Assembly (NCBI GenBank): GCA_000002435.2
Contig: AACB03000006.1
Source of the DNA: Giardia intestinalis
Lineage: Eukaryota
Strand: one strand, 5' to 3'
Length of the DNA stretch: 17,561 bases
A model generated the notes under the pieces. The model saw only the letters and a program-made list of their open reading frames with translations. It ran no database searches and was not told the origin of the DNA. This document shows, piece by piece, positions 1 through 17,561 of this stretch; position 1 is the first letter of the stretch; each line of letters starts with the position of its first letter. Both the position numbers and the translations under genes were made by a program.

Positions 1-837
1 AGGCCGTGGGGTCCTCGCAGGCCTTTGTGCACTTCACCGGATTGGTTCCCTCCTTGCGATAGTTGGACTTGCAATCGGTGCATGTAGGGGTTAGGCCGCT
101 GTTACATTGGGAGCACCCCTCGATGCCATTGTCGGCTTACTGTCGCAGGCGAAGCACTTACCAGCAGAGCCGGGTTGTTTCATGAAGAATCCAGGCTTGC
201 ATTTAGTGCACTGATCATTGCCAGCAGCAGAGCATGTAGCACAGTTGGCACCGCAAGCTGTGCATGTATCAGAACCAAAGTATCCGTCGAGGCAAGCTGA
301 GCAGGTCGGCTTGGCTCCGTTCTTCTTACACGTTTTACAATTAGCAATCCCCTTGTCGTTTGCTTCTGTTCCTGTTGTTGTATCACTGCATAATATGCAC
401 TTGGTGCTATCATCACTCAGAAAGTGGGATCCGTCGACGTTATCTGTTGCGCACCCAGCATCATCGACGCAAGTGGTTGTCCCATCCAGCTCTGTCTTCA
501 CCTTCTTATTGTTACAGGCGGTGCACTGGGGCTTGCTGACAGTCGTGTTGTACTCACACGCGGTGCAATCTGCTATACCAGACTCCTTGCATGTCATTGT
601 CATAGGGTCAGCATAAGTGTTTCCAGTGCATCCATCACTATTCACGCATGCATTATCCTTCAGGAACGTATTTCCCTTACAAGAGGTACACTGGGTCGCC
701 GATGTCTCACAGGTCAGACAAGTACCATCACATTTGGTACATGCCTGAGAGTCCATGTAGTACCCATCTTGACACTCGGTGCACGTGGCCGCTCCTGTAT
801 TGCCACCAGGTGCCGTGCACTTGAGACAGTTGGCCAC
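1..837 (-). CDS. VSP-type cysteine-rich surface protein cassette, partial (its N-terminal ~279 codons; the C-terminus runs off the window start)
   Basis: The protein [27 protein letters not shown]... is identical to the N-terminal half of the 10506..12098 protein, and this copy sits at the 11260-bp offset. It is CXXC-rich. The first codon is GTG, not ATG. A 1-nt T-run difference at ~137 (tt here versus ttt at 11397) closes the ORF at 91, either a real frameshift or a read error. Confidence 0.7.
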
Positions 838-989
838 TCCCTTGTTCCATTCGCTCCTGTGGCATCATGACAGAGTATGCACTCCCCACCAGGGGTCACC
901 TTGTCTGCCCCATTCTGGAATATGTACTGACTATCTGTATTACAAGCAGTGCATACTCCATTACTGGCCTGTGTGCATATCACACTCCA

Positions 990-1040
990 CTATCATACTA
1001 TCACCCTCTATCACACATTGTACAGCATTCACTACCCAAG
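990..1040 (-). repeat. Inter-cassette junction element (a CTATCAC/GTGATAG short-repeat block plus the polyA signal)
   Basis: + strand: ctatcatactatcaccctctatcacacattgtacagcattcactacccaag. It includes the rc of AGTGAAT at 1027..1033, 7 nt past the stop of 1041..2660. It ends in an in-frame TAG (cta at 990..992) followed by ..TGG AGT GTG ATA TGC, which starts the next cassette. Confidence 0.75.
1027..1033 (-). promoter_or_regulatory. Putative polyadenylation signal AGTGAAT (Giardia AGTRAAY consensus)
   Basis: attcact on the + strand, 7 nt 3' of the TGA of 1041..2660. The same heptamer recurs at a fixed distance after every cassette stop: 2842..2848, 4753..4759, 6679..6685, 8592..8598, 10406..10412, 12287..12293, 14102..14108 and 16013..16019. 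Confidence 0.7.
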
Positions 1041-2660
1041 TCACGCCTTCCCCCTGCACACGAACCACCAGCAGAGGAAGCCCACGAGGCCCCCCACGAC
1101 AGCGACCACAGCGACGGAGATCCCCGCGATGGCCCCCGTGGAGAGCCCGCTCCTGTTGGCGCCAGAGGACACACAGGAGGCCCCACTGCTGTCTAGGCTG
1201 AAGCCACTGTTGCACTCCTCACACACATCATCCACCACACAGCTCTTGCAATCACCCACAGAGCATGTCACACACCCACTGCCGTCCTTGTTGGGCACCT
1301 TACCACTGTCACAGGCAGTACACACAGCGGCAGCCATACCAACTGTTGTTAGAGCTGCTGGGGCTGTACACTGGGAGCAGCCATGTACCCCCACATATGC
1401 CTTAGCGGTACCTTGAGGATCTACTAGTGTGCCTAGGGGGTTACTACATGCCAACACGGACTGCTGAGCATTGGATGCCCCTGGTACCAGGAAGTACTTA
1501 TTATTCTCATTAACAGCGGTACAGACACCGTTGGCTGCTGTCTTGCACATATGTTGTCCAGGTGGACTCTGAGTGCTATAACAACCACCCATATATAAGA
1601 AATATCCTGTAGTACAAGACTCACAGACATGGTTGTTACAAGTATTACTTTGAGCCTCACTAGCACAGAGACCATCTATAGGATACTTACTGCTATCCCC
1701 ACAGTATGAACAGTAGTGCTTTGTGGTGCCCTGATCATCTATTATCATGGCATCACAAGCACCAGAGGTACCCCCACAGGCAGTATCATCTTCACATACC
1801 TTTGTACATGTAACAGGACTGGTACCACTCTGCTTGCGATAGTTCACCTTACAGTCAGTACACTTGAAAGTACTGGCCTCCATTGTGCATTGGGAGCACC
1901 CCTCGATGCCCCCATTGTTTGTGTCATCGCAGGCGAAGCATTCTCCAGGAGTGCTACTGACCTTCAGGAAGAACCCGGTCTTGCAGGTTTGGCATTTGGT
2001 CTTGTCAGCTTTTTCAGAACATGTGGCACAGTTAGCACCACAGGCCTCACACGTGGCGGCAGGGCCATTTCCTTCTTTGATATACCCTTCGAGGCATTCT
2101 ATGCATTCTGGTTTCTGACTTTGCTGCTTAGTACATGTCTTGCAGCCGGCAATGCCTTTGTTCTTTGGTTCTGAATCCGACGCTGCGGGATCACTGCACA
2201 AACGACACACGTTGTCTTCGGTCATAAAGAGACCGTTATCAGCTCCTTGACACCCGGCGTAGTCTTTTGTCACACAGGTCGAGGTCCCATCAAGGGTCGT
2301 CCTGGGGGTCTTATTGGTCCCGCAGTTGGTGCACCTTGGCTTCCCCGTGGCATCATTATATTCACATGCGGTGCACCCAGCTATGTCGGGATCACATGCC
2401 TTGCAGGTCCAGGTCTTCTTGTCTGCGTACTTATCAGCACCACATTCAGTAGCCTCTACACAAGTGTTACCATCCTTCAGGAACTTCCCCTCAACGCAGG
2501 CGGTACACTGAGTCGGAGTATCAGCTGAGCAAGCAGAGCAGCCGTCTCCGCACTTCACACATGCACTGTCCTTCGTAACGAACCCTGCTTGACACTCTGT
2601 ACACGTGGCCGGTCCGCTAGTGCCCGTGTGGGAGCATTCTGAGCATCCAGCGACTCCCAT
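1041..2660 (-). CDS. Variant-specific surface protein (VSP), 539 aa
   Basis: The ORF is full of CXXC motifs and contains the FLYMGGCY (GGCY) motif. Its C-terminal hydrophobic helix is [30 protein letters not shown], followed by TGA. The rc of AGTGAAT lies 7 nt beyond the stop at 1027..1033. The ATG at 2658..2660 is real, but in-frame VSP-like codons ([44 protein letters not shown]) continue 48 codons upstream to a TAG at 2805..2807 with no ATG. No signal peptide is present. Confidence 0.85.
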   Translation of the reverse strand: MGVAGCSECSHTGTSGPATCTECQAGFVTKDSACVKCGDGCSACSADTPTQCTACVEGKFLKDGNTCVEATECGADKYADKKTWTCKACDPDIAGCTACEYNDATGKPRCTNCGTNKTPRTTLDGTSTCVTKDYAGCQGADNGLFMTEDNVCRLCSDPAASDSEPKNKGIAGCKTCTKQQSQKPECIECLEGYIKEGNGPAATCEACGANCATCSEKADKTKCQTCKTGFFLKVSSTPGECFACDDTNNGGIEGCSQCTMEASTFKCTDCKVNYRKQSGTSPVTCTKVCEDDTACGGTSGACDAMIIDDQGTTKHYCSYCGDSSKYPIDGLCASEAQSNTCNNHVCESCTTGYFLYMGGCYSTQSPPGQHMCKTAANGVCTAVNENNKYFLVPGASNAQQSVLACSNPLGTLVDPQGTAKAYVGVHGCSQCTAPAALTTVGMAAAVCTACDSGKVPNKDGSGCVTCSVGDCKSCVVDDVCEECNSGFSLDSSGASCVSSGANRSGLSTGAIAGISVAVVAVVGGLVGFLCWWFVCRGKA

Positions 2661-2804
2661 GACCCCGTTTCTATCTGTCGTATCAGAGCACAGTATGCAC
2701 TCACTACCCTTCTCTGGTGTTGCAGCCGGGTTCTTGAACAGGCCGTTATCTGCCTTACAAGCAGTGCACAGTCCTCCCTCAGCCTTTGTGCATATCTCAC
2801 TCCA

Positions 2805-2855
2805 CTATCATACTATCACCCTCTATCACACATTGTACAGCATTCACTACCCAAG
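2805..2855 (-). repeat. Inter-cassette junction element
   Basis: It is the same conserved ~51-bp element. The polyA signal rc is at 2842..2848, 7 nt past the stop at 2856. The TAG is at 2805..2807. Confidence 0.75.
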
Positions 2856-4697
2856 TCACGCCTTCCCTCTACATATGAACCACCAGCAGAGGAAGCCGAC
2901 GAGGCCCCCCACGACAGCGATGACAGCGACGGAGATCCCTGCTATGGCACCAGTACTGAGGCCGCTCTTGTTGGTGCCAGAGGACGCACAGGAGGTCCCA
3001 CTGCTGTCAGGGCTGTATCCATCGTTGCACACACAGACAGAGTCGGTGTCAGTGGAGTTGCTGGGGCAGCTATCCACGCATGACTTCCTTCCAGGGCTCA
3101 CCTTCTTACCACTACTGCATGCCTCGCACATGTTGTCCATATCACAGTGCGAGCATCCACTAACGGTACATGGGAAGCACCCGCTCCCAGCCAGGTTGGG
3201 CTTGTTGTTGTTGGTACACGCTGTACACACAGCAGCAGTCATACCAGTCTCAGATGGAGCTGTTGGGGCCGTGCATGCTGAGCAGTTGAGTACCCCAACG
3301 TATGCCTTAGAGGTATCACCAGTGCCTACTAGTGTGCCAAGGGAGTTGCTACATGCTAATACAGACTGATTCTGATTGGTTGCCCCAGGGACTACGAAGT
3401 ACCTATTGTTGGCATTAACAGCAGTACAGACACCGTTGGCTGCTGTCTTGCACATATGTTGTCCAGGTACTGTATCAACCTTGTAACAACCTCCCATATA
3501 CAAGAAGTAGTTGTTAGTGCATTGTGTACATACACCTTGATCACATTGATTATTTGCTTTAGCACTATTACACTTCCCATCTATAGGATACGTATTAGCT
3601 TCTCCACAGTATGAGCAATAATGATGCTCTACACCCTTATCATCAATCACTATTGCATCGCAGGCACCAGAAGTTCCTCCACAGGCAGTATCATCTTCAC
3701 AGATCTTGGTGCATGTGACAGAGCCAGTACTGCCCTCCTTGCGATAGTTAGGCTTACAGTCAGTGCACTTGAAAGCACCGTTGTTAGAGCAGACACTGCA
3801 GCCTTCGCGACCCTTATCGTCTACGCTATCGCATGGGACGCACTTCTTCCCCTGTTGATCTGTAGTAGTTACTAAGAAGTATCCAGTCTTGCAGGTTTCA
3901 CACTTATTTGGATCACCAGCAACAGAGCATGTGGCACAGTTATCACCACACTTGTCTGTACATGTACTAGTACCACTATCAAAGAAGTATCCATCGAGAC
4001 AGGCTGAGCAGGTTGGATTGTCACTTCCTGTTTTCGTACATGTCTTGCAGTTGGCCTTTCCTTCGTTACCAAGAGTTGAATCTGTCACATCACTACAAAG
4101 AGCACACGTTTTGTCCTCCTTCATAAATAAGGCCTCGTCAGCGCCCTCGCATCCTTCAAGCGTCTTCGCCACGCAGGTCGATGTCCCGTCGAGGGCCGTC
4201 CTGGGGGTCTTATTGGTCCCGCAGTTAGTGCACTTCGGCTTCCCCGTGGCCTTGTCGAAGGAGCATGCCGTGCACTCTGCGTGTATCGTACTACATGCCT
4301 TGCATGTTCCCGACTCCGGGTCAGCATAAGTGTTTCCATCGCATCCAGTATCTTGTACACATTGATTACTCTTCAGGTACTTCCCCTCTGGGCACGATGT
4401 ACAATGATTCTGACCACTTCCATCGCAGGTCAGACAAGCTTCATTACATTTGACACATGTCTGAGAGTTCTTGTAGTATCCATCTTGGCACTCTGTACAC
4501 GTGGCAGGTCCTGGACTACTGTCTGACTTGGTACACTGTGCGCAGTTAGCCACCCCTGTATATCCATCTGCCCCATTGACATCATGACAGAGGATGCACT
4601 CACTACCAGGCTTCTGAGGTGTAACTGGGTTCTTGAACAGGCCGTTAGCTGTCTTACAAGCAGTGCACACTCCATCACTGGCTGCTGTGCATATCAC
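2856..4697 (-). CDS. Variant-specific surface protein (VSP), 613 codons. The ORF begins at GTG directly after the junction TAG, and the first in-frame ATG is ~190 codons in
   Basis: It has CXXC repeats, the GGCY motif, and the tail [17 protein letters not shown] followed by TGA. The first codon at 4695..4697 is cac on the + strand, which is GTG on the gene strand. The upstream in-frame sequence reads TAG TGG AGT (..*WS). The polyA signal is at 4753..4759 for the upstream neighbour and 2842..2848 for this gene. Confidence 0.8.
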   Translation of the reverse strand: MICTAASDGVCTACKTANGLFKNPVTPQKPGSECILCHDVNGADGYTGVANCAQCTKSDSSPGPATCTECQDGYYKNSQTCVKCNEACLTCDGSGQNHCTSCPEGKYLKSNQCVQDTGCDGNTYADPESGTCKACSTIHAECTACSFDKATGKPKCTNCGTNKTPRTALDGTSTCVAKTLEGCEGADEALFMKEDKTCALCSDVTDSTLGNEGKANCKTCTKTGSDNPTCSACLDGYFFDSGTSTCTDKCGDNCATCSVAGDPNKCETCKTGYFLVTTTDQQGKKCVPCDSVDDKGREGCSVCSNNGAFKCTDCKPNYRKEGSTGSVTCTKICEDDTACGGTSGACDAIVIDDKGVEHHYCSYCGEANTYPIDGKCNSAKANNQCDQGVCTQCTNNYFLYMGGCYKVDTVPGQHMCKTAANGVCTAVNANNRYFVVPGATNQNQSVLACSNSLGTLVGTGDTSKAYVGVLNCSACTAPTAPSETGMTAAVCTACTNNNKPNLAGSGCFPCTVSGCSHCDMDNMCEACSSGKKVSPGRKSCVDSCPSNSTDTDSVCVCNDGYSPDSSGTSCASSGTNKSGLSTGAIAGISVAVIAVVGGLVGFLCWWFICRGKA

Positions 4698-4703
4698 ACT
4701 CCA

Positions 4704-4766
4704 CTATCACACATTATCACCCACTATCACCTTCTATCACCCATTGTACAGCATTCACTACCCAAG
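4704..4766 (-). repeat. Inter-cassette junction element (a longer variant with extra CTATCAC-like units)
   Basis: + strand: ctatcacacattatcacccactatcaccttctatcacccattgtacagcattcactacccaag. The polyA signal rc is at 4753..4759. The TAG is at 4704..4706. Confidence 0.75.
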
Positions 4767-6497
4767 TCACGCCTTCCCCCTGCACACGAACCACCAGCAG
4801 AGGAAGCCCACGAGGCCCCCCACGACAGCGATGACAGCCACGGAGATCCCCGCGACGGCCCCCGTGGAGAGCCCGCTCCTGTTGGTGCCAGAGGACACAC
4901 ACATGCCATCCCTCGGGACATAGCCCTCCTCGCACTCCCCGCAGACGCCCTCTGCGCTGCACCGCATGCACCTCTCTATGTCACAGACAATGCACTGGGT
5001 GCCGTCCAGGCTGGGTCTCTGGTCTTTATTGGTACATGCCTCACACTTGTTGTCTGCGCTGCAGTGAGAGCAGCCCTGGGCCGGACACACATAGCAGGTG
5101 CTTCCAGCCATGTTGGGCTTCTTATTGTCCTCAGCACACACCTCGCACATCCCGTCGATGGCGCAGCTCTTGCACCCGCCGACCGCACACAGGGTGCACC
5201 CGCTGCCATCCTTGTTGGGCTTCTTCGTCTTGTCGCACGCACTACAGACCGCCGCGGCCATCGCATTGGCGGCTGGCGCCTGCGGGGCCGCGCACGCCGT
5301 GCAGTCTAGCACGCCGACGTACGCCTTGTCGCCCGCGGTCGCTCCCACAGGGTTGCCACAGGCAAGCACGGACTGCTGAGCAGCAGAGTCCCCAGGAATC
5401 TTGAAGTAGCGCCCGACCGGTGTGGTGCAGAACCCACTTGGAGCCGCAGAGCACATGAGGTTGCCAGGAGCCTTCGACACATCATAGCAACCACCCATAT
5501 AGAGGAAGTAGTTGTTGGTGCACCGCGTACATACGCCATCGGCGCAGGTATTACCTGCAAGTGCATTGGTGCACTTCCCATTAATAGGGCCATAGCCGGC
5601 GCCAACACACTTTGAACAGTAAGAGAGCATGCTGCCGTCGTTGCCGACCACGATGGCGTCGCAGGCCCCTGCTGTCCCTCCACATGCAGTCTCATCTTCA
5701 CAGGTCTTTGTACATGTGAGGTCGCTAGGTTCTCCGCTGGGTCTGTAGTTGGGCTTACATTCAGTGCATTTGAGGGACCCCACGCCGCCTGTGCACTCGG
5801 CACAGCCTGGAATCCCACTTGTCTCGTCATCACAGAGAACGCATGTCTTAGGCGGGCCATCCTTAAGGAAGTACCCCGGCATGCATCTTGTACATGTGTT
5901 GATTTGACCCGCTGTTCCGCACTCTGCGCAGTTTCCTGTGCAGGCCTCGCAGGCGTTTCCGTTGACTTTATACCCGTCGACACAAGCCTCGCAGGTGCCT
6001 TTTGCGGTGCACAGCTTGCAGTTCTGGACTCCGCCCTTACCATTGTCGCCGCACTGCACGCACTTCGAGGCGTCGTAGAAGTGCGTCTTGCCCACTTTGC
6101 ACTCGGCCTCATCAACACAGGTCGTTGTCCCATCCAGCTCGTCTCTGACCGTCTTACTACCGCAGTCGGTGCACTTCGGCTTTCCCGTGGCGTCGTCGTA
6201 TGCACACGCGGTGCATCCTTGTATCTCACTGCAGGCCTTACAGGTCCAGGTCTTCTTGTCCGCATAGTTACCATTGTCACATCCACCAGCATCTACACAA
6301 GTGTTACCATCCTTCAGGTACTTCCCCTCAACGCAGGCGGTACACTGAGTCGGAGTATCAGCTGAGCAAGCAGAGCAGCCGTCTCCGCACTTCACACATG
6401 CACTGTCCTTCGTAACGAACCCTGCTTGACACTCTGTACACGTGGCCGGTCCGCTAGTGCCCGTGTGGGAGCATTCTGAGCATCCAGCGACTCCCAT
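4767..6497 (-). CDS. Variant-specific surface protein (VSP), 576 aa
   Basis: Its N-terminal 58 aa are identical to those of the 1041..2660 protein and the middle is divergent. It carries the CRGKA tail. The same 48-codon ATG-less in-frame extension continues upstream to 6642..6644. The polyA signal is at 4753..4759. Confidence 0.85.
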   Translation of the reverse strand: MGVAGCSECSHTGTSGPATCTECQAGFVTKDSACVKCGDGCSACSADTPTQCTACVEGKYLKDGNTCVDAGGCDNGNYADKKTWTCKACSEIQGCTACAYDDATGKPKCTDCGSKTVRDELDGTTTCVDEAECKVGKTHFYDASKCVQCGDNGKGGVQNCKLCTAKGTCEACVDGYKVNGNACEACTGNCAECGTAGQINTCTRCMPGYFLKDGPPKTCVLCDDETSGIPGCAECTGGVGSLKCTECKPNYRPSGEPSDLTCTKTCEDETACGGTAGACDAIVVGNDGSMLSYCSKCVGAGYGPINGKCTNALAGNTCADGVCTRCTNNYFLYMGGCYDVSKAPGNLMCSAAPSGFCTTPVGRYFKIPGDSAAQQSVLACGNPVGATAGDKAYVGVLDCTACAAPQAPAANAMAAAVCSACDKTKKPNKDGSGCTLCAVGGCKSCAIDGMCEVCAEDNKKPNMAGSTCYVCPAQGCSHCSADNKCEACTNKDQRPSLDGTQCIVCDIERCMRCSAEGVCGECEEGYVPRDGMCVSSGTNRSGLSTGAVAGISVAVIAVVGGLVGFLCWWFVCRGKA

Positions 6498-6641
6498 GAC
6501 CCCGTTTCTATCTGTCGTATCAGAGCACAGTATGCACTCACTACCCTTCTCTGGTGTTGCATCAGGGTTCTTGAACAGGCCGTTAGCTGTCTTACAAGCA
6601 GTGCACAGTCCTCCCTCAGCCTTTGTGCATATCTCACTCCA

Positions 6642-6692
6642 CTATCATACTATCACACACTATCACCCATTGTATAGCATTCACTACCCAAG
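6642..6692 (-). repeat. Inter-cassette junction element
   Basis: + strand: ctatcatactatcacacactatcacccattgtatagcattcactacccaag. The polyA signal rc is at 6679..6685. Confidence 0.75.
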
Positions 6693-8540
6693 TCACGCCT
6701 TCCCCCTGCACACGAACCACCAGCAGAGGAAGCCCACGAGGCCCCCCACGACAGCGATGACAGCCACGGAGATCCCTGCTATGGCACCAGTACTGAGGCC
6801 GCTTCTGTTGCCCCCGCTGGGCTTGGTGGACACGCACGCCTCACCCTCCAGCCTGTAGTCGTCCCCACACTGGCCGCACTTGTTCTCCTCGCTGCACCTG
6901 ACGCACCCGTCGATATTGCAGGCGATGCACTTCGTTCCGTCTGTGTTCGGCCTCTGGTCTTTACTGGTACAGGCCTCGCACTTACCGCCTGCTCCACAGT
7001 GCGAGCATCCGTCAACGGTACATGCGAAGCACCCGCTCCCAGCCAGGTTGGGCTTGTTGTTGTTGGTACACGCTGTACACACAGCAGCAGTCATACCAGT
7101 CTCAGACAGAGCTGTTGGGGCCGTGCATGCCGAACAGCCATCTACCCCCACATATGCCTTAGAGGTATCACCAGTGCCTACTAGTGTGCCAAGGGAGTTG
7201 CTACATGCCAATACAGACTGATTCTGATTGGTTGCCCCAGGGACTATGAAGTACCTATTGTTGGCATTAACAGCGGTACAGACACCGTTGGCTGCTGTCT
7301 TGCACATATGTTGTCCAGGTACTGTATCAACCTTGTAACAACCTCCCATATACAAGAAGTAGTTGTTAGTGCATTGTGTACATACACCTTGATCACATTG
7401 ATTATTTGCTTTAGCACTATTACACTTCCCATCTATAGGATACGTATTAGCTTCTCCACAGTATGAGCAATAATGATGCTCTACACCCTTATCATCAATC
7501 ACTATTGCATCGCAGGCACCAGAAGTTCCTCCACAGGCAGTATCATCTTCACAGATCTTGGTGCATGTGACAGAGCCAGTACTGCCCTCCTTGCGATAGT
7601 TAGGCTTACAGTCAGTGCACTTGAAAGCACCGTTGTTAGAGCAGACACTGCAGCCTTCGCGACCCTTATCGTCTACGCTATCGCATGGGACGCACTTCTT
7701 CCCCTGTTGATCTGTAGTAGTTACTAAGAAGTATCCAGTCTTGCAGGTTTCACACTTATTTGGATCACCAGCAACAGAGCATGTGGCACAGTTATCACCA
7801 CACTTGTCTGTACATGTACTAGTACCACTATCAAAGAAGTATCCATCGAGACAGGCTGAGCAGGTTGGATTGTCACTTCCTGTTTTCGTACATGTCTTGC
7901 AGTTGGCCTTTCCTTCGTTACCAAGAGTTGAATCTGTCACATCACTACAAAGAGCACACGTTTTGTCCTCCTTCATAAATAAGGCCTCGTCAGCGCCCTC
8001 GCATCCTTCAAGCGTCTTCGCCACGCAGGTCGATGTCCCGTCGAGGGCCGTCCTGGGGGTCTTATTGGTCCCGCAGTTAGTGCACTTCGGCTTCCCCGTG
8101 GCCTTGTCGAAGGAGCATGCCGTGCACTCTGCGTGTATCGTACTACATGCCTTGCATGTTCCCGACTCCGGGTCAGCATACTTATCATTACCACAGCTAT
8201 CAGTACATTGATTCCCATTGAGGTACTTCCCCTCTGGACACGATGTGCACTGGGTCGCCGATGTCTCACAGGTGGCACAGTTCCCCTCGCATGGCTTACA
8301 AAGCTTGTTGTTTAGGAAGTACCCCTCTTGACAGGTATTACACGTGGCAGGTCCTGCATTCCCTGGTGCCGTACACTTGAGACAGTTGGCCACTCCCGTA
8401 TATCCATTCGCTCCCTTGATATCAGAGCACAAGATGCACTCCCCACCAGGAGTCACCTTGTCTGCCCTGTTCTGGAATATGTACTTGTTATCTGTCTTAC
8501 AAGCAGTGCACAGTCCATTACTGGCCTTTGTACATATCAC
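6693..8540 (-). CDS. Variant-specific surface protein (VSP), 615 codons, a mosaic paralogue
   Basis: The central ~350 aa (…CKACSTIHAECTACSFDKATGKPKCTNCGTNKTPRTALDGTSTCVAK… through …AYVGV) are essentially identical to 2856..4697. The C-terminal ~100 aa match the C-terminus of 10506..12098. The N-terminus is unique. It carries the CRGKA tail. The first codon is GTG, preceded by an in-frame TAG at 8547..8549. Confidence 0.8.
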   Translation of the reverse strand: MICTKASNGLCTACKTDNKYIFQNRADKVTPGGECILCSDIKGANGYTGVANCLKCTAPGNAGPATCNTCQEGYFLNNKLCKPCEGNCATCETSATQCTSCPEGKYLNGNQCTDSCGNDKYADPESGTCKACSTIHAECTACSFDKATGKPKCTNCGTNKTPRTALDGTSTCVAKTLEGCEGADEALFMKEDKTCALCSDVTDSTLGNEGKANCKTCTKTGSDNPTCSACLDGYFFDSGTSTCTDKCGDNCATCSVAGDPNKCETCKTGYFLVTTTDQQGKKCVPCDSVDDKGREGCSVCSNNGAFKCTDCKPNYRKEGSTGSVTCTKICEDDTACGGTSGACDAIVIDDKGVEHHYCSYCGEANTYPIDGKCNSAKANNQCDQGVCTQCTNNYFLYMGGCYKVDTVPGQHMCKTAANGVCTAVNANNRYFIVPGATNQNQSVLACSNSLGTLVGTGDTSKAYVGVDGCSACTAPTALSETGMTAAVCTACTNNNKPNLAGSGCFACTVDGCSHCGAGGKCEACTSKDQRPNTDGTKCIACNIDGCVRCSEENKCGQCGDDYRLEGEACVSTKPSGGNRSGLSTGAIAGISVAVIAVVGGLVGFLCWWFVCRGKA

Positions 8541-10224
8541 ACTCCACTATCACACTATCACCCTCTATACCATTATCACACATTGTATAGCATTCACTAC
8601 CTGAGTCATGCCTTCCCTCTACATATGAACCACCAGCAGAGGAAGCCCACGAGGCCCCCACGACGACGACCACAGCGACGGAGATCCCCGCGATGGCCCC
8701 CGTGGAGAGCCCGCTCCTGTTGGTACTCATAGACACACAGGAGGCCCCACTGCTGTCTATGCTGAAACCACTGTTGCACTCTTCACATATATTATCCATC
8801 ACACAGCTCTTACAATCACCCACAGAGCATGTCACACACCCACTGCCGTCCTTGTTGGGCACCTTACCACTGTCACAGGAGGTACACACAGCGGCAGTCA
8901 TACCACCATCAGACAGAGCTGCTGGGGCCGTACATGCCGAACAGCCATCTACCCCCACATATGCCTTAGCGGTACCTTGAGGATCTACTAGTGTGCCTAG
9001 GGGGTTACTACATGCCAACACGGACTGCTGAGCATTGGATGCCCCTGGTACCAGGAAGTACTTATTATTCTCATTAACAGCGGTACAGACACCGTTGGCT
9101 GCTGTCTTGCACATATGTTGTCCAGGTGGACTCTGAGTGCTATAACAACCACCCATATATAAGAAATATCCTGTAGTACAAGACTCACAGACATGGTTGT
9201 TACAAGTATTACTTTGAGCCTCACTAGCACAGAGACCATCTATAGGATACTTACTGCTATCCCCACAGTATGAACAGTAGTGCTTTGTGGTGCCCTGATC
9301 ATCTATTATCATGGCATCACAAGCACCAGAGGTACCCCCACAGGCAGTATCATCTTCACATACCTTTGTACATGTAACAGGACTGGTACCACTCTGCTTG
9401 CGATAGTTCACCTTACAGTCAGTACACTTGAAAGTACTGGCCTCCATTGTGCATTGGGAGCACCCCTCGATGCCCCCATTGTTTGTGTCATCGCAGGCGA
9501 AGCATTCTCCAGGAGTGCTACTGACCTTCAGGAAGAACCCGGTCTTGCAGGTTTGGCATTTGGTCTTGTCAGCTTTTTCAGAACATGTGGCACAGTTAGC
9601 ACCACAGGCCTCACACGTGGCGGCAGGGCCATTTCCTTCTTTGATATACCCTTCGAGGCATTCTATGCATTCTGGTTTCTGACTTTGCTGCTTAGTACAT
9701 GTCTTGCAGCCGGCAATGCCTTTGTTCTTTGGTTCTGAATCCGACGCTGCGGGATCACTGCACAAACGACACACGTTGTCTTCGGTCATAAAGAGACCGT
9801 TATCAGCTCCTTGACACCCGGCGTAGTCTTTTGTCACACAGGTCGAGGTCCCATCAAGGGTCGTCCTGGGGGTCTTATTGGTCCCGCAGTTAGTGCACCT
9901 TGGCTTCCCCGTGGCATCATTATATTCACATGCGGTGCACCCAGCTATGTCGGGATCACATGCCTTGCAGGTCCAGGTCTTCTTGTCTGCGTACTTATCA
10001 GCACCACATTCAGTAGCCTCTACACAAGTGTTACCATCCTTCAGGAACTTCCCCTCAACGCAGGCGGTACACTGAGTCGGAGTATCAGCTGAGCAAGCAG
10101 AGCAGCCGTCTCCGCACTTCACACATGCACTGTCCTTCGTAACGAACCCTGCTTGACACTCTGTACACGTGGCCGGTCCGCTAGTGCCCGTGTGGGAGCA
10201 TTCTGAGCATCCAGCGACTCCCAT
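8518..10224 (-). CDS. VSP paralogue of 1041..2660 with an apparent frameshift in the transmembrane/tail coding region. The expected CRGKA stop is at 8606..8608
   Basis: The protein is identical to the 539-aa VSP up to ...AKAYVGV and then divergent. On the + strand at ~8656..8662 a run of 5 C replaces the 6 C seen in every other copy, a G6 run in the codons VGGLVG. The ORF therefore reads through the FLCWWFICRGKA frame and ends at 8518. Restoring 1 nt would give ...FLCWWFICRGKA with TGA at 8606. Confidence 0.7.
   Translation of the reverse strand: MGVAGCSECSHTGTSGPATCTECQAGFVTKDSACVKCGDGCSACSADTPTQCTACVEGKFLKDGNTCVEATECGADKYADKKTWTCKACDPDIAGCTACEYNDATGKPRCTNCGTNKTPRTTLDGTSTCVTKDYAGCQGADNGLFMTEDNVCRLCSDPAASDSEPKNKGIAGCKTCTKQQSQKPECIECLEGYIKEGNGPAATCEACGANCATCSEKADKTKCQTCKTGFFLKVSSTPGECFACDDTNNGGIEGCSQCTMEASTFKCTDCKVNYRKQSGTSPVTCTKVCEDDTACGGTSGACDAMIIDDQGTTKHYCSYCGDSSKYPIDGLCASEAQSNTCNNHVCESCTTGYFLYMGGCYSTQSPPGQHMCKTAANGVCTAVNENNKYFLVPGASNAQQSVLACSNPLGTLVDPQGTAKAYVGVDGCSACTAPAALSDGGMTAAVCTSCDSGKVPNKDGSGCVTCSVGDCKSCVMDNICEECNSGFSIDSSGASCVSMSTNRSGLSTGAIAGISVAVVVVVGASWASSAGGSYVEGRHDSGSECYTMCDNGIEGDSVIVECDMYKGQ
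8547..8605 (-). repeat. Inter-cassette junction element (a variant)
   Basis: + strand: ctatcacactatcaccctctataccattatcacacattgtatagcattcactacctgag. The polyA signal rc is at 8592..8598. The stop of the upstream cassette would be 8606..8608. Confidence 0.7.
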
Positions 10225-10368
10225 GACCCCGTTTCTATCTGTCGTATCAGAGCACAGTATGCACTCACTACCCTTCTCTGGTGTTGCAGCCGGGTTCTTG
10301 AACAGGCCGTTATCTGCCTTACAAGCAGTGCACAGTCCTCCCTCAGCCTTTGTGCATATCTCACTCCA

Positions 10369-10419
10369 CTATCATACTATCACCCTCTATCACACATTGT
10401 ACAGCATTCACTACCCAAG
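10369..10419 (-). repeat. Inter-cassette junction element
   Basis: Same as 2805..2855. The polyA signal rc is at 10406..10412. The expected stop of the 10506..12098 cassette is 10420..10422. Confidence 0.75.
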
Positions 10420-10505
10420 TCACGCCTTCCCCCTGCACACGAACCACCAGCAGAGGAAGCCCACGAGGCCCCCCACGACAGCGATGACAGCCACGGAGAT
10501 CCCTG

Positions 10506-12098
10506 CTATGGCACCAGTACTGAGGCCGCTTCTGTTGCCCCGCTGGGCTTGGTGGACACGCACGCCTCACCCTCCAGCCTGTAGTCGTCCCCACACTGGC
10601 CGCACTTGTTCTCCTCGCTGCACCTGACGCACCCGTCGATATTGCAGGCGATGCACTTCGTTCCGTCTGTGTTCGGCCTCTGGTCTTTACTGGTACAGGC
10701 CTCGCACTTATCGCCTGCTCCACAGTGCGAGCATCCGTCAACGGTACATGCGAAGCACCCGCTCCCAGCCAGGTTGGGCTTGTTGTTGTTGGTACACGCT
10801 GTGCACGTGGCGGCAGTCATGCCACCATCAGATGGAGCTGCTGGGGCTGTACACTGTGAACAGTTGAGTACCCCCACGTATGCCTTAGCAGTATCACCAG
10901 TGCCTACTAGTGTGCCTAGGGGGTTCTCGCAGGCCAGGACAGACTGATCAGTATTGGATGCCCCCGGGACCAGGAAGTACCGGCCGTTCTCGCTGGGGGC
11001 GGTGCACCTCCCTCCCTCGGCAGTCTTGCACATGTGGCTGCCAGGAGCCTTCGACACATCATAGCAGCCGCCCATGTACAGGAAGAACCCGGCAGCACAC
11101 CGGGTGCAGACGCCATTGGCACAGGTGTTGTCACCCTTAGTTCCTGTGCAGATCCCATCGATGGGGAACGTGGCGGGGTCTCCGCACAGCGAGCAGTACT
11201 GGGAGAACGCCCCGGCGCTGTCAACGACGACCGCCCCGCAGGCCCCAGACGTCCCCCCGCAGGCCGTGGGGTCCTCGCAGGCCTTTGTGCACTTCACCGG
11301 ATTGGTTCCCTCCTTGCGATAGTTGGACTTGCAATCGGTGCATGTAGGGGTTAGGCCGCTGTTACATTGGGAGCACCCCTCGATGCCATTGTCGGCTTTA
11401 CTGTCGCAGGCGAAGCACTTACCAGCAGAGCCGGGTTGTTTCATGAAGAATCCAGGCTTGCATTTAGTGCACTGATCATTGCCAGCAGCAGAGCATGTAG
11501 CACAGTTGGCACCGCAAGCTGTGCATGTATCAGAACCAAAGTATCCGTCGAGGCAAGCTGAGCAGGTCGGCTTGGCTCCGTTCTTCTTACACGTTTTACA
11601 ATTAGCAATCCCCTTGTCGTTTGCTTCTGTTCCTGTTGTTGTATCACTGCATAATATGCACTTGGTGCTATCATCACTCAGAAAGTGGGATCCGTCGACG
11701 TTATCTGTTGCGCACCCAGCATCATCGACGCAAGTGGTTGTCCCATCCAGCTCTGTCTTCACCTTCTTATTGTTACAGGCGGTGCACTGGGGCTTGCTGA
11801 CAGTCGTGTTGTACTCACACGCGGTGCAATCTGCTATACCAGACTCCTTGCATGTCATTGTCATAGGGTCAGCATAAGTGTTTCCAGTGCATCCATCACT
11901 ATTCACGCATGCATTATCCTTCAGGAACGTATTTCCCTTACAAGAGGTACACTGGGTCGCCGATGTCTCACAGGTCAGACAAGTACCATCACATTTGGTA
12001 CATGCCTGAGAGTCCATGTAGTACCCATCTTGACACTCGGTGCACGTGGCCGCTCCTGTATTGCCACCAGGTGCCGTGCACTTGAGACAGTTGGCCAC
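10506..12098 (-). CDS. VSP paralogue ([12 protein letters not shown]...) with a frameshift just before the transmembrane domain. The expected end is at 10420
   Basis: It has CXXC repeats, the GGCY motif, and C-terminal modules shared with 6693..8540. At 10538..10541 there are 4 C where 5 C stand at the homologous 6811..6815. The shift gives ...[14 protein letters not shown] instead of [17 protein letters not shown]...CRGKA. The first codon at 12096..12098 is GTG. An additional N-terminal frameshift is present in the upstream piece 12099..12243. Confidence 0.7.
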
Positions 12099-12249
12099 TC
12101 CCTTGTTCCATTCGCTCCTGTGGCATCATGACAGAGATGCACTCCCCACCAGGGGTCACCTTGTCTGCCCCATTCTGGAATATGTACTGACTATCTGTAT
12201 TACAAGCAGTGCATACTCCATTACTGGCCTGTGTGCATATCACACTCCA

Positions 12250-12300
12250 CTATCATACTATCACCCTCTATCACACATTGTACAGCATTCACTACCCAAG
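12250..12300 (-). repeat. Inter-cassette junction element
   Basis: A copy of 990..1040 at the +11260 offset. The polyA signal rc is at 12287..12293. Confidence 0.75.
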
Positions 12301-13920
12301 TCACGCCTTCCCCCTGCACACGAACCACCAGCAGAGGAAGCCCACGAGGCCCCCCACGACAGCGACCACAGCGACGGAGATCCCCGCGATGGCCCCCGTG
12401 GAGAGCCCGCTCCTGTTGGCGCCAGAGGACACACAGGAGGCCCCACTGCTGTCTAGGCTGAAGCCACTGTTGCACTCCTCACACACATCATCCACCACAC
12501 AGCTCTTGCAATCACCCACAGAGCATGTCACACACCCACTGCCGTCCTTGTTGGGCACCTTACCACTGTCACAGGCAGTACACACAGCGGCAGCCATACC
12601 AACTGTTGTTAGAGCTGCTGGGGCTGTACACTGGGAGCAGCCATGTACCCCCACATATGCCTTAGCGGTACCTTGAGGATCTACTAGTGTGCCTAGGGGG
12701 TTACTACATGCCAACACGGACTGCTGAGCATTGGATGCCCCTGGTACCAGGAAGTACTTATTATTCTCATTAACAGCGGTACAGACACCGTTGGCTGCTG
12801 TCTTGCACATATGTTGTCCAGGTGGACTCTGAGTGCTATAACAACCACCCATATATAAGAAATATCCTGTAGTACAAGACTCACAGACATGGTTGTTACA
12901 AGTATTACTTTGAGCCTCACTAGCACAGAGACCATCTATAGGATACTTACTGCTATCCCCACAGTATGAACAGTAGTGCTTTGTGGTGCCCTGATCATCT
13001 ATTATCATGGCATCACAAGCACCAGAGGTACCCCCACAGGCAGTATCATCTTCACATACCTTTGTACATGTAACAGGACTGGTACCACTCTGCTTGCGAT
13101 AGTTCACCTTACAGTCAGTACACTTGAAAGTACTGGCCTCCATTGTGCATTGGGAGCACCCCTCGATGCCCCCATTGTTTGTGTCATCGCAGGCGAAGCA
13201 TTCTCCAGGAGTGCTACTGACCTTCAGGAAGAACCCGGTCTTGCAGGTTTGGCATTTGGTCTTGTCAGCTTTTTCAGAACATGTGGCACAGTTAGCACCA
13301 CAGGCCTCACACGTGGCGGCAGGGCCATTTCCTTCTTTGATATACCCTTCGAGGCATTCTATGCATTCTGGTTTCTGACTTTGCTGCTTAGTACATGTCT
13401 TGCAGCCGGCAATGCCTTTGTTCTTTGGTTCTGAATCCGACGCTGCGGGATCACTGCACAAACGACACACGTTGTCTTCGGTCATAAAGAGACCGTTATC
13501 AGCTCCTTGACACCCGGCGTAGTCTTTTGTCACACAGGTCGAGGTCCCATCAAGGGTCGTCCTGGGGGTCTTATTGGTCCCGCAGTTGGTGCACCTTGGC
13601 TTCCCCGTGGCATCATTATATTCACATGCGGTGCACCCAGCTATGTCGGGATCACATGCCTTGCAGGTCCAGGTCTTCTTGTCTGCGTACTTATCAGCAC
13701 CACATTCAGTAGCCTCTACACAAGTGTTACCATCCTTCAGGAACTTCCCCTCAACGCAGGCGGTACACTGAGTCGGAGTATCAGCTGAGCAAGCAGAGCA
13801 GCCGTCTCCGCACTTCACACATGCACTGTCCTTCGTAACGAACCCTGCTTGACACTCTGTACACGTGGCCGGTCCGCTAGTGCCCGTGTGGGAGCATTCT
13901 GAGCATCCAGCGACTCCCAT
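12301..13920 (-). CDS. Variant-specific surface protein (VSP), 539 aa, a second copy of 1041..2660
   Basis: The protein is identical to the 1041..2660 product and lies at the +11260 offset. It has the CRGKA tail. The polyA signal is at 12287..12293. Confidence 0.85.
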   Translation of the reverse strand: MGVAGCSECSHTGTSGPATCTECQAGFVTKDSACVKCGDGCSACSADTPTQCTACVEGKFLKDGNTCVEATECGADKYADKKTWTCKACDPDIAGCTACEYNDATGKPRCTNCGTNKTPRTTLDGTSTCVTKDYAGCQGADNGLFMTEDNVCRLCSDPAASDSEPKNKGIAGCKTCTKQQSQKPECIECLEGYIKEGNGPAATCEACGANCATCSEKADKTKCQTCKTGFFLKVSSTPGECFACDDTNNGGIEGCSQCTMEASTFKCTDCKVNYRKQSGTSPVTCTKVCEDDTACGGTSGACDAMIIDDQGTTKHYCSYCGDSSKYPIDGLCASEAQSNTCNNHVCESCTTGYFLYMGGCYSTQSPPGQHMCKTAANGVCTAVNENNKYFLVPGASNAQQSVLACSNPLGTLVDPQGTAKAYVGVHGCSQCTAPAALTTVGMAAAVCTACDSGKVPNKDGSGCVTCSVGDCKSCVVDDVCEECNSGFSLDSSGASCVSSGANRSGLSTGAIAGISVAVVAVVGGLVGFLCWWFVCRGKA

Positions 13921-14064
13921 GACCCCGTTTCTATCTGTCGTATCAGAGCACAGTATGCACTCACTACCCTTCTCTGGTGTTGCAGCCGGGTTCTTGAACA
14001 GGCCGTTATCTGCCTTACAAGCAGTGCACAGTCCTCCCTCAGCCTTTGTGCATATCTCACTCCA

Positions 14065-14115
14065 CTATCATACTATCACCCTCTATCACACATTGTACAG
14101 CATTCACTACCCAAG
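14065..14115 (-). repeat. Inter-cassette junction element
   Basis: A copy of 2805..2855. The polyA signal rc is at 14102..14108. Confidence 0.75.
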
Positions 14116-15957
14116 TCACGCCTTCCCTCTACATATGAACCACCAGCAGAGGAAGCCGACGAGGCCCCCCACGACAGCGATGACAGCGACGGAGATCCCT
14201 GCTATGGCACCAGTACTGAGGCCGCTCTTGTTGGTGCCAGAGGACGCACAGGAGGTCCCACTGCTGTCAGGGCTGTATCCATCGTTGCACACACAGACAG
14301 AGTCGGTGTCAGTGGAGTTGCTGGGGCAGCTATCCACGCATGACTTCCTTCCAGGGCTCACCTTCTTACCACTACTGCATGCCTCGCACATGTTGTCCAT
14401 ATCACAGTGCGAGCATCCACTAACGGTACATGGGAAGCACCCGCTCCCAGCCAGGTTGGGCTTGTTGTTGTTGGTACACGCTGTACACACAGCAGCAGTC
14501 ATACCAGTCTCAGATGGAGCTGTTGGGGCCGTGCATGCTGAGCAGTTGAGTACCCCAACGTATGCCTTAGAGGTATCACCAGTGCCTACTAGTGTGCCAA
14601 GGGAGTTGCTACATGCTAATACAGACTGATTCTGATTGGTTGCCCCAGGGACTACGAAGTACCTATTGTTGGCATTAACAGCAGTACAGACACCGTTGGC
14701 TGCTGTCTTGCACATATGTTGTCCAGGTACTGTATCAACCTTGTAACAACCTCCCATATACAAGAAGTAGTTGTTAGTGCATTGTGTACATACACCTTGA
14801 TCACATTGATTATTTGCTTTAGCACTATTACACTTCCCATCTATAGGATACGTATTAGCTTCTCCACAGTATGAGCAATAATGATGCTCTACACCCTTAT
14901 CATCAATCACTATTGCATCGCAGGCACCAGAAGTTCCTCCACAGGCAGTATCATCTTCACAGATCTTGGTGCATGTGACAGAGCCAGTACTGCCCTCCTT
15001 GCGATAGTTAGGCTTACAGTCAGTGCACTTGAAAGCACCGTTGTTAGAGCAGACACTGCAGCCTTCGCGACCCTTATCGTCTACGCTATCGCATGGGACG
15101 CACTTCTTCCCCTGTTGATCTGTAGTAGTTACTAAGAAGTATCCAGTCTTGCAGGTTTCACACTTATTTGGATCACCAGCAACAGAGCATGTGGCACAGT
15201 TATCACCACACTTGTCTGTACATGTACTAGTACCACTATCAAAGAAGTATCCATCGAGACAGGCTGAGCAGGTTGGATTGTCACTTCCTGTTTTCGTACA
15301 TGTCTTGCAGTTGGCCTTTCCTTCGTTACCAAGAGTTGAATCTGTCACATCACTACAAAGAGCACACGTTTTGTCCTCCTTCATAAATAAGGCCTCGTCA
15401 GCGCCCTCGCATCCTTCAAGCGTCTTCGCCACGCAGGTCGATGTCCCGTCGAGGGCCGTCCTGGGGGTCTTATTGGTCCCGCAGTTAGTGCACTTCGGCT
15501 TCCCCGTGGCCTTGTCGAAGGAGCATGCCGTGCACTCTGCGTGTATCGTACTACATGCCTTGCATGTTCCCGACTCCGGGTCAGCATAAGTGTTTCCATC
15601 GCATCCAGTATCTTGTACACATTGATTACTCTTCAGGTACTTCCCCTCTGGGCACGATGTACAATGATTCTGACCACTTCCATCGCAGGTCAGACAAGCT
15701 TCATTACATTTGACACATGTCTGAGAGTTCTTGTAGTATCCATCTTGGCACTCTGTACACGTGGCAGGTCCTGGACTACTGTCTGACTTGGTACACTGTG
15801 CGCAGTTAGCCACCCCTGTATATCCATCTGCCCCATTGACATCATGACAGAGGATGCACTCACTACCAGGCTTCTGAGGTGTAACTGGGTTCTTGAACAG
15901 GCCGTTAGCTGTCTTACAAGCAGTGCACACTCCATCACTGGCTGCTGTGCATATCAC
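14116..15957 (-). CDS. Variant-specific surface protein (VSP), 613 codons, a second copy of 2856..4697
   Basis: The protein is identical to the 2856..4697 product and lies at the +11260 offset. It has a GTG first codon and the CRGKA tail. The polyA signal is at 14102..14108. Confidence 0.8.
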   Translation of the reverse strand: MICTAASDGVCTACKTANGLFKNPVTPQKPGSECILCHDVNGADGYTGVANCAQCTKSDSSPGPATCTECQDGYYKNSQTCVKCNEACLTCDGSGQNHCTSCPEGKYLKSNQCVQDTGCDGNTYADPESGTCKACSTIHAECTACSFDKATGKPKCTNCGTNKTPRTALDGTSTCVAKTLEGCEGADEALFMKEDKTCALCSDVTDSTLGNEGKANCKTCTKTGSDNPTCSACLDGYFFDSGTSTCTDKCGDNCATCSVAGDPNKCETCKTGYFLVTTTDQQGKKCVPCDSVDDKGREGCSVCSNNGAFKCTDCKPNYRKEGSTGSVTCTKICEDDTACGGTSGACDAIVIDDKGVEHHYCSYCGEANTYPIDGKCNSAKANNQCDQGVCTQCTNNYFLYMGGCYKVDTVPGQHMCKTAANGVCTAVNANNRYFVVPGATNQNQSVLACSNSLGTLVGTGDTSKAYVGVLNCSACTAPTAPSETGMTAAVCTACTNNNKPNLAGSGCFPCTVSGCSHCDMDNMCEACSSGKKVSPGRKSCVDSCPSNSTDTDSVCVCNDGYSPDSSGTSCASSGTNKSGLSTGAIAGISVAVIAVVGGLVGFLCWWFICRGKA

Positions 15958-15963
15958 ACTCCA

Positions 15964-16026
15964 CTATCACACATTATCACCCACTATCACCTTCTATCAC
16001 CCATTGTACAGCATTCACTACCCAAG
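15964..16026 (-). repeat. Inter-cassette junction element (long variant)
   Basis: A copy of 4704..4766. The polyA signal rc is at 16013..16019. Confidence 0.75.
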
Positions 16027-17561
16027 TCACGCCTTCCCCCTGCACACGAACCACCAGCAGAGGAAGCCCACGAGGCCCCCCACGACAGCGATGACAGCCA
16101 CGGAGATCCCCGCGACGGCCCCGTGGAGAGCCCGCTCCTGTTGGTGCCAGAGGACACACACATGCCATCCCTCGGGACATAGCCCTCCTCGCACTCCCCG
16201 CAGACGCCCTCTGCGCTGCACCGCATGCACCTCTCTATGTCACAGACAATGCACTGGGTGCCGTCCAGGCTGGGTCTCTGGTCTTTATTGGTACATGCCT
16301 CACACTTGTTGTCTGCGCTGCAGTGAGAGCAGCCCTGGGCCGGACACACATAGCAGGTGCTTCCAGCCATGTTGGGCTTCTTATTGTCCTCAGCACACAC
16401 CTCGCACATCCCGTCGATGGCGCAGCTCTTGCACCCGCGACCGCACACAGGTGCACCCGCTGCCATCCTGTGGGCTTCTTCGTCTTGTCGCACGCACTAC
16501 AGACCGCCGCGGCCATCGCATTGGCGGGCTGGCGCCTGCGGGCCGCGCACGCCCGTGCATCTAGCACGCCGACGTACGCCTTGTCGCCCGCGGTCGCTCC
16601 CACAGGGTTGCCACAGGCAGCACGGACTGCTGAGCAGCAAGTCCCCAGAATCTGAAGTACGCCCGACGGTGTGGTGCAGAACCCACTGGAGCCGCAGAGC
16701 ACATGAGGTTGCCAGAGCCTTCGACACATCATAGCAACCACCCATATAGAGGAAGTAGTTGTTGGTGCACCGCGTACATACGCCATCGGCGCAGGTATTA
16801 CCTGCAAGTGCATTGTGCACTTTCCCATTAATAGGCCCATAGCCGGCGCCAACACACTTTGAACAGTAAGAGAGCATGCTGCCGTCGTGCCGACCACGAT
16901 GGCGTCGCAGGCCCCTGCTGTCCCCACATGCAGTCTCATCTTCACAGGTCTTTGTACATGTGAGGTCGCTAGGTTCTCCGCTGGTCTGTAGTTGGGCTTA
17001 CATTCAGTGCATTTGAGGGACCCCACGCCGCCTGTGCACTCGGCACAGCCTGGAATCCCACTTGTCTCGTCATCACAGAGAAACGCATGTCTTAGGCGGG
17101 CCATCCTTAAGGAAGTACCCGGCATGCATCTTGTACATGTGTTGATTTGACCCGCTGTTCCGCACTCTGCGCAGTTTCCTGTGCAGGCCTCGCAGGCGTT
17201 TCCGTTGACTTTATTACCCGTCGACACAAGCCTCGCAGGTGCCTTTTGCGGTGCACAGCTTGCAGTTCTGGACTCCGCCCTTACCATTGTCGCCGCACTG
17301 CACGCACTTGAGGCGTCGTAGAAGTGCGTCTTGCCCACTTTGCACTCGGCCTCATCAACACAGGTCGTTGTCCCATCCAGCTCGTCTCTGACCGTTTACT
17401 ACCGCAGTCGGTGCACTTCGGCTTTCCCGTGGCGTCGTCGTATGCACACGCCGGTGCATCCTTGTATCTCACTGCAGGCCTTACAGGTCCAGGTCTTCTT
17501 GTCCGCATAGTTACCTTGTCACATCCACCAGCATCTACACAAGTGTTACCATCCTTCAGGT
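16027..17561 (-). pseudogene. Degraded or low-quality second copy of the 4767..6497 VSP, partial at the window end
   Basis: 16027..16230 encodes an intact ...[24 protein letters not shown] tail. Upstream of that, the copy differs from 4975..6301 almost only by many 1-3 nt deletions, with no obvious substitutions. For example, 16441..16500 versus 5181..5244 lacks c, g and tgt. The reading frame hops between three frames in ORFs 16235..17338, 16497..16877 and 17281..17508. Confidence 0.6.

Follow-up and report, generated by a model that had tools for sequence, protein, structure and literature searches.

The 63-nt joint at positions 4704-4766, between two long minus-strand ORFs in the stretch of Giardia intestinalis DNA analyzed here (17,561 nt, hereafter the window), is probably a 5'-truncation scar bearing a slippage-prone mini-repeat that has been carried along by tandem duplication, and not a dedicated recombination signal. 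The window consists of eight complete and two partial VSP pseudogene cassettes, truncated at their 5' ends and arranged head to tail on the minus strand, with such a joint at each of the nine junctions (Table 1).

Protein-level analysis assigned the Pfam family PF03302 (VSP) to the cassettes (E = 5e-39 for cassette B and 1e-42). The cassette proteins have a CXXC-rich ectodomain, a C-terminal transmembrane (TM) helix and the tail [V/I]CRGKA, and their top matches were VSPs of G. lamblia ATCC 50803 (WB); the ORF at 1041-2660 showed 100% identity to the GenBank entry 'VSP S7', and cassette D showed 99% identity to the WB protein XP_001705784. The source of the array is Giardia intestinalis assemblage A, WB-like. 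No Rfam family matched within the window.

Table 1. Features of the joint at 4704-4766, its eight counterparts and the cassettes of the window
Feature	Position	Strand	Remarks
Conserved 3' end, cassette C	4767-4883	-	Transmembrane helix, CRGKA tail, TGA stop at 4767-4769
VSP extended polyadenylation signal ACTTGGGTAGTGAATGC	4751-4767	-	Overlaps the final base of the stop codon
Putative relic VSP gene start ACAATGGGTGATAG	4734-4747	-	Initiator-like CAATG and first signal-peptide codons; includes heptamer 1
Heptamer block	4704-4740	-	GTGATAG AAG GTGATAG TGG GTGATAA TGT GTGATAG; four cores, 10-nt spacing
Junction A/G	990-1040	-	3 cores
Junction B/A	2805-2855	-	3 cores, 51 nt
Junction D/C	6642-6692	-	3 cores
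Junction E/D	8547-8605	-	59 nt; 3 cores and a partial GGTATAG; polyadenylation signal variant ACTCAGG
Junction F/E	10369-10419	-	Identical to 2805-2855
Junction in duplicated segment	12250-12300	-	Copy of 990-1040
Junction in duplicated segment	14065-14115	-	Copy of 2805-2855
Junction in duplicated segment	15964-16026	-	Copy of 4704-4766
Cassette A	1041-2804	-	Uninterrupted frame
Cassette B	2856-4703	-	5'-truncated VSP pseudogene; 615 open codons, WSVICTAASDG... to CRGKA and stop
Cassette C	4767-6641	-	Uninterrupted frame
Cassette D	6693-8546	-	Uninterrupted frame
Cassette E	8606-10368	-	One frameshift, in the TM region
Cassette F	10420-12249	-	Two compensating frameshifts

The sequence TAG TGG AGT G[T/A]G ATA TG[C/T] ACA opens every complete cassette in frame, as the original prediction had proposed, and 51-63 nt separate each stop codon from the in-frame TAG that follows; at the joint under study, this TAG is the last one of the heptamer block (4704-4706), in frame with cassette B. 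The cassettes begin WS[V/E]ICT..., approximately 105 residues inside full-length VSPs, without a start codon. Cassette B has no in-frame ATG at its start, and the YAATGTT (PyAATGTT) initiator had no match anywhere in the window. The full-length VSPs P0003, P0008, and P0016 have approximately 105 extra N-terminal residues compared with the cassettes, which are predicted to lack a signal peptide. In four of the six distinct cassettes (A-D), the reading frame is uninterrupted between the junction TAG and the stop codon, a length of 588-625 codons. Such open frames without a start codon suggest recent duplication, conversion or selection on silent donors, and the missing initiator and the literature together indicate that the cassettes are probably silent.

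This organization corresponds to the 'linear arrays' of WB vsp genes (Adam et al. 2010, BMC Genomics 11:424, PMC2996952), which are described there as head-to-tail ORFs with ~60-bp spacers, initiator-less members, long identical stretches and 3' ends conserved up to CRGKA. In the sections of that paper available to us, over half of the WB vsp genes are arranged head to tail, the PyAATGTT initiator is missing from downstream array members, which often have no ATG either, and a role as unexpressed recombination cassettes is proposed for array members. Those sections contain no counterpart of the relic start, the entry points or the 10-bp GTGATAG repeat described below.

Self-comparison revealed that window positions 1-6319 recur at 11261-17561, a direct duplication (11.26 kb). 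One mismatch and 31 single-base indels distinguish the copies, nearly all of them at 16118-17515 (the last 1.4 kb), where they disrupt the frame of the right-most cassette. With so many indels, the right end resembles the unpolished end of a long-read contig, or an overlap left by assembly, more than a biological feature. That the right-hand 6.3 kb duplicates the left-hand 6.3 kb with one mismatch and 31 gap openings, typical of unpolished long reads, could also mean that the junction pattern as a whole arose from misassembly of a repetitive region. This is almost certainly not the case, since the same junction architecture is present in three independent short-read metagenome assemblies, six WB proteins of the 2007 Sanger genome contain the translated joint, and six distinct cassettes in the non-duplicated part carry it.

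The anatomy of the joint can be read directly from the junction sequences. The sequence CATTCACTACCCAAG was found at 1026, 2841, 4752, 6678, 8591, 10405, 12286, 14101, and 16012 (nine sites compared with 0.06 expected); eight of the nine copies are exact, and the copy at 8591, with two mismatches, reads CATTCACTACCTGAG. Exact CTATCAC occurs 20 times in the window compared with 3.05 expected (largest count in a shuffle, 9), and all 20 copies lie within junctions. The gene strand is free of C for 44-56 nt at 4690-4745 and at the eight equivalent sites, and no C-free run elsewhere in the window is as long as those at the nine junctions (mean longest run in shuffles, 34). The original prediction of a junction element holding the polyadenylation signal and the cassette start is thus borne out at nine of nine junctions, with correct sizes and coordinates for the blocks of 51, 63, and 59 nt. 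All nine carry the block, but because of the duplication (1-6319/11261-17561) and the identity of junction 10405 with junction 2841 they amount to approximately five distinct sequences rather than nine independent ones.

The 'cattcactacccaag' part of the element is the published VSP extended polyadenylation signal, ACUUAGRUAGURAAYRY, which has been reported for VSPs and VSP pseudogenes at no more than 28 nt from the stop codon (Rodriguez-Walker et al., bioRxiv 10.1101/2022.03.07.483299). All nine junctions matched this consensus with one mismatch (none expected by chance), and in all nine the match begins at the last base of the stop codon. The published signal ends ...AATGC, and the heptamer block lies downstream of it, which is not the case after the signals of stand-alone VSPs. 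The signal had been described as embedded in the repeats; it does lie inside the junction, but it adjoins the heptamers and is not built of them. TRF identified the repeat at 4701-4743 with a period of 10, 4.3 copies and a score of 58. While the heptamers originally proposed are real, as the CTATCAC copies demonstrate, they are more accurately seen as the 7-nt cores (GTGATAG) of a degenerate tandem repeat whose 10-nt units also include a 3-nt linker; the block is written in short as (GTGATAGNGG)n.

Homologies to full-length VSPs are directly visible on both sides of the repeat. Directly after the polyadenylation signal, five other junctions read ACAATGTGTGATAG, which equals the start of the full-length P15 VSP (L010), ACAATGTTGTTGATAGCA (Met-Leu-Leu-Ile-Ala), minus two T's, so that the junction 14-mer is within two deletions of it. 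Matches with at most two edits were found only at junctions (five compared with 0.04 expected), whereas the MLLTA-type start of the assemblage A-like L008 fits the relic less well. We therefore read ACAATGTGTGATAG, with moderate confidence and on a homology of 14 nt with one assemblage E gene as the comparison, as a decayed VSP initiator and start codon derived from ACAATGTTGTTGATAG (Met-Leu-Leu-Ile); the first heptamer would then be a remnant of signal-peptide codons. At the other end, the re-entry sequence TGG AGT G[A/T]G ATA TGC ACA aligns with GGC AGC GAG ATA TGC ACA (Gly-Ser-Glu-Ile-Cys-Thr). This re-entry point lies approximately 105 codons into full-length VSPs, and the signal peptide and first Cys-rich module are accordingly missing. 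In alignment A1, a junction of the Giardia contig L003 retains ...LLFIGGCY...GSEICT, colinear with full-length VSPs, where the window junctions have a 66-nt gap.

The element is not confined to this array, and the absence from other arrays that would have spoken against the original prediction was not observed; the block was also present in the Giardia contigs L002, L003, and L007, each from an independent short-read ENA metagenome assembly, and in six WB array proteins. The joints of L002 and L007 have three cores, the last of which merges into the cassette start as GTGATAT followed directly by GCACA. L003 contains three joints: one with seven cores continues into ...LLFIGGCY...GSEICT and enters the cassette 66 nt upstream of the entry point in the window, one with a single core leads directly into the last 70 codons, and the third has four cores. 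The one-heptamer joint forms, with the VSP end to which it is fused, a 70-codon mini-cassette (L003:1880-2147, ...GGCKSCVVDNICGECSDGF...CRGKA) that resembles the 224-bp vsp14 of Adam et al. 2010 (PMC2996952). The window is the WB array that we read as DNA, and the other WB arrays were read as proteins. Exact look-ups of the 539-aa ORF of the window and of the WB protein P0003 returned no record. The six WB proteins (2007 Sanger-genome annotation) start at an ATG within the polyadenylation signal and translate the repeat as MLYSDSDS...GGDSDS.../...VGDSDS..., followed by LLFMGGCY; P0001 and P0121 contain a 50-aa junction-encoded peptide. The DNA underlying SDSDS in these proteins is probably AGT GAT AGT, in agreement with the DNA of L003.

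Stand-alone VSPs share only the polyadenylation signal, up to AATGCT, and diverge right after it; the idea that the block belongs to the 3' flank of VSPs in general was rejected for this reason. No GTGATAG block was found upstream of, or at the equivalent internal site in, the full-length VSPs of L001, L008/L009, and L010. The block was likewise absent from the assemblage B head-to-tail VSP pairs examined (L004, L006, and L011), whose spacers are unrelated, and it was therefore also rejected as a universal feature of Giardia arrays. An element belonging to VSP genes generally is not what we observed; its presence in other arrays and its absence from stand-alone VSPs and assemblage B loci make the joint a hallmark of one assemblage A array family. 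Scanning of JGI metagenomes with the junction pattern and with a general VSP 3'-end pattern gave no matches.

Several other features of these loci were observed. The assemblage B (GCA_000498735.1) pseudogene loci (L004:9990-11830, L006:3520-5410, and L011:6280-8310) contain pseudogene ORFs that start VNDPAGV[S/P]IDSLCRP directly after GGTGAGTGAAC, and many assemblage B pseudogenes end in ...KSSSALCC or KSLSALCC instead of the TM helix and CRGKA. In L004 and L006, a signal-peptide-bearing VSP with a replaced ATG (CAATCTCAGCGTTGTTAGCA) lies 47 nt after each pseudogene. An assemblage A-like full-length VSP at L001:9940-10010 reads ACA GCC TTT CTA CTG ATA CCC compared with Met-Phe-Gln-Leu-Ile-Pro in the WB protein P0003; its canonical start codon appears to be missing, and it may be a pseudogene or reflect a strain difference.

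Copy number of the repeat was observed directly to vary. The window junctions have three or four cores each, and across the window and the other arrays the counts per junction were 1, 3, 3, 4, 4, and 7, based on approximately 10 distinct junctions from four sources. The predicted variation in heptamer number therefore holds, at 1-7 cores changing in register with the 10-nt unit, and repeat-unit variants reappear in shifted register from junction to junction; we infer slippage as the cause. Cores are spaced by 10 nt in 14 of 24 cases and by 8 nt in four. Among 32 cores from the window, L002, L003, and L007, we counted GTGATAG (19), GTGATAA (4), ATGATAG (4), GTGATAT (4), and GTGACAG (1), with the linkers AAG, TGG, AGG or TGT between them. 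Both stop codons of TGA-TAG are kept in the common variants GTGATAA and ATGATAG, and one is lost in one of the 32 cores (GTGACAG).

Alignment of six distinct junction contexts revealed variable columns at 15 of 90 positions in the TM/CRGKA segment, four of 26 in the polyadenylation signal and spacer, 24 of 45 in the heptamer block, and 26 of 70 in the cassette start (first 67 nt). The block, which had been predicted to be conserved, is instead the least conserved and most variable segment of the junction. Within it, the mismatch per nucleotide was 5.8% in cores compared with 33% in linkers, an approximately fivefold contrast that is statistically weak because the units are related by descent. 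Selection on the core could explain its conservation, the kept stop codons and the 10-bp phasing, which places all cores on the same side of the helix. The corresponding proposal is that the phased GTGATAG cores are putative binding sites for a sequence-specific protein acting as a silencer, insulator or chromatin boundary, for which the low mismatch of cores relative to linkers, the dominance of spacing by one helical turn and the strong strand asymmetry of the C-free gene strand would all speak. We regard such binding as quite unlikely, given that copy number ranges from one to seven and one junction works with a single core, that the core/linker contrast is weakened by descent, and that assemblage B and stand-alone VSPs lack the block. 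GTGATAG was also unclustered in 71 kb of other Giardia DNA, where 17 scattered matches were found compared with approximately 9 expected.

The position of the block relative to the polyadenylation signal raises a function at the RNA level, either as a GU-rich downstream cleavage/polyadenylation element or as a multi-frame stop module against read-through. The block starts approximately 13 nt after the AGTGAA hexamer, the distance at which Giardia cleavage sites have been placed (bioRxiv 10.1101/2022.03.07.483299). Each core also supplies TGA TAG in a frame rotated by the 10-nt spacing, and the four cores at 4704-4766 close all three frames. Nevertheless, stand-alone VSPs possess the same polyadenylation signal followed by unrelated downstream sequence, and the cassettes lack a start codon anyway, which makes a role in termination very improbable. 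In the commonest three-core variant one frame is open throughout the block, and annotated ORFs in other WB arrays read through it as SDSDS; an obligatory three-frame stop module was rejected on these grounds. A G-quadruplex (at most two GGG runs in the window junctions) and a telomere-like TAGGG repeat (no alignment) were likewise rejected.

Within-array tracts were obtained by self-comparison of the window at ≥96% identity. A 785-nt tract with 98.6% identity crosses its junction from -383 to +400, a 1,490-nt tract spans -12 to -337, and a 1,028-nt tract lies entirely within cassettes. Tract breaks recur at +400, and other ends lie at +425, -337, -383, and -461; several identity tracts, in a small sample, start at -12, adjoining the joint. 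Four of the 11 differences in the 785-nt tract fall at +18 to +36, that is, at four of 19 positions (junction 6642-6692 compared with its counterpart). That this tract crosses the block, with differences clustered there, suggests a local hot spot of change and not a tract boundary. The original prediction had suggested a breakpoint for unequal crossover or gene conversion: in-register changes do fit slippage or unequal exchange inside the block, but most tract ends lie away from it, and a conversion breakpoint at the block appears unlikely given these positions and the 785-nt tract running across it.

Comparison with full-length, signal-peptide-bearing WB proteins encoded on other chromosomes revealed exact segments in common: 142 residues of cassettes E and A (unit positions 181-606) with P0003, 287 residues of cassette C (unit positions 976-1836) with P0008, and 125 residues of cassette F (unit positions 773-1147) with P0045. 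P0023 has several segments in common with window cassettes. All segments common to cassettes and full-length WB VSPs begin and end within cassettes. This mosaicism, at the amino-acid level, supports a putative exchange between arrays and intact genes.

These patterns bear on the possibility that the heptamer block is a cis-acting recombination element at the 5' boundary of silent cassettes and a preferred initiation site for unequal crossing-over or gene conversion. Such an element would explain why the block is found at every cassette boundary, here and in the other arrays bearing the joint, why junctions with otherwise near-identical surroundings differ in their number of cores and in the order of the units, and why substitutions cluster within the block; the cassette is entered at three different points after the block, which would fit deletions or joins starting there, and some identity tracts begin at -12. 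We consider this unlikely, because long tracts cross the block unbroken, most tract ends are internal, and the segments in common with full-length VSPs start and stop in coding sequence. Moreover, full-length, potentially expressed VSPs have no matching block, so that a recipient-side partner is missing, and the assemblage B loci lack it as well. The tract starts at -12 may nonetheless point to a role for the block in short-tract exchange.

The truncation-scar reading accounts for the joint as four successive parts on the gene strand. The first would be the extended polyadenylation signal of the upstream copy; the second, the decayed gene start; the third, the C-free 10-bp-period repeat, at the place where approximately 300 nt coding for the signal peptide and first module would have been deleted; and the fourth, the re-entry into VSP coding sequence at Gly-Ser-Glu-Ile-Cys-Thr. 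Having arisen as a truncation scar, the joint would have been duplicated along with each cassette while unequal exchange enlarged the array. This exchange would have taken place between long conserved flanks, namely approximately 135 nt of TM/CRGKA/polyadenylation signal on the upstream side and, on the downstream side, the first ~70 nt of the cassette, which are conserved. Repeat copy number would shift by in-register slippage or unequal pairing, the repeat may seed further deletions into the cassette, and the closing of reading frames by its TGA/TAG codons would be a by-product. The block most likely has no function of its own, and the cassettes are probably neutral.

The behavior of the block resembles that of an ordinary mini- or microsatellite at a truncation scar in its tandem units, in-register copy changes and raised local substitution and indel rate, and differs in that the 7-nt core is better conserved than the 3-nt linker, which a neutral repeat need not show. 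A second comparison is with the 70-bp repeats of Trypanosoma brucei VSGs, which are imperfect, variable in copy number and located directly upstream of silent cassettes, with a conserved 3' end downstream; they also occur in the expression site and provide upstream homology for conversion. The likeness lies in a variable-copy short repeat at the upstream edge of each silent cassette in the Giardia window. In contrast, full-length Giardia VSPs have no matching block, and the common tracts start inside coding sequence. Within the genus, telomeric tandem arrays of pseudo-VSPs without signal peptides, essentially untranscribed, have been described in G. muris, together with signs of genetic exchange between pseudo-VSPs and intact VSPs (Xu et al. 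2020, PMC7641422). Those arrays and the window are alike in consisting of tandem pseudogenes without signal peptides, and differ in their tails, GCRGK in G. muris and CRGKA in the window, a difference that ruled out a G. muris origin for the window. Earlier publications already cover this type of array, its lack of an initiator, the cassette hypothesis and the extended polyadenylation signal. As far as the available parts of the array literature extend, we found neither the repeat nor the relic start described, and no account of the alternative entry points; these add descriptive detail to a known system. Searching the literature for the GTGATAG motif together with Giardia returned only unrelated primer sequences.

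Antigenic variation in Giardia is usually regarded as switching between intact VSP genes by epigenetic means alone, and approximately 200 VSP pseudogenes are present in Giardia arrays. The view of these arrays as a sequence reservoir is supported by ORFs of approximately 600 codons without a start codon, by the exact segments of 125-287 residues in common with full-length VSPs on other chromosomes, and by a recognizable array-specific scar joining the cassettes. A decidedly unlikely reading is that the GTGATAG cores form a cis-element of assemblage A arrays, a protein-bound boundary that would silence donors and set off short-tract exchange or deletion at the 5' margins of cassettes. If this were true, the block would play in Giardia the part that the 70-bp repeats play in trypanosomes and would offer physical access to the recombinational diversification of VSPs. 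A functional repeat would be without precedent as a cis-element in VSP recombination, but present evidence makes such a function unlikely. The combination of polyadenylation signal, CAATG and GTGATAG repeats is a practical marker with which array cassettes can be found and counted in assemblies and long-read or PCR assays of array dynamics can be designed.
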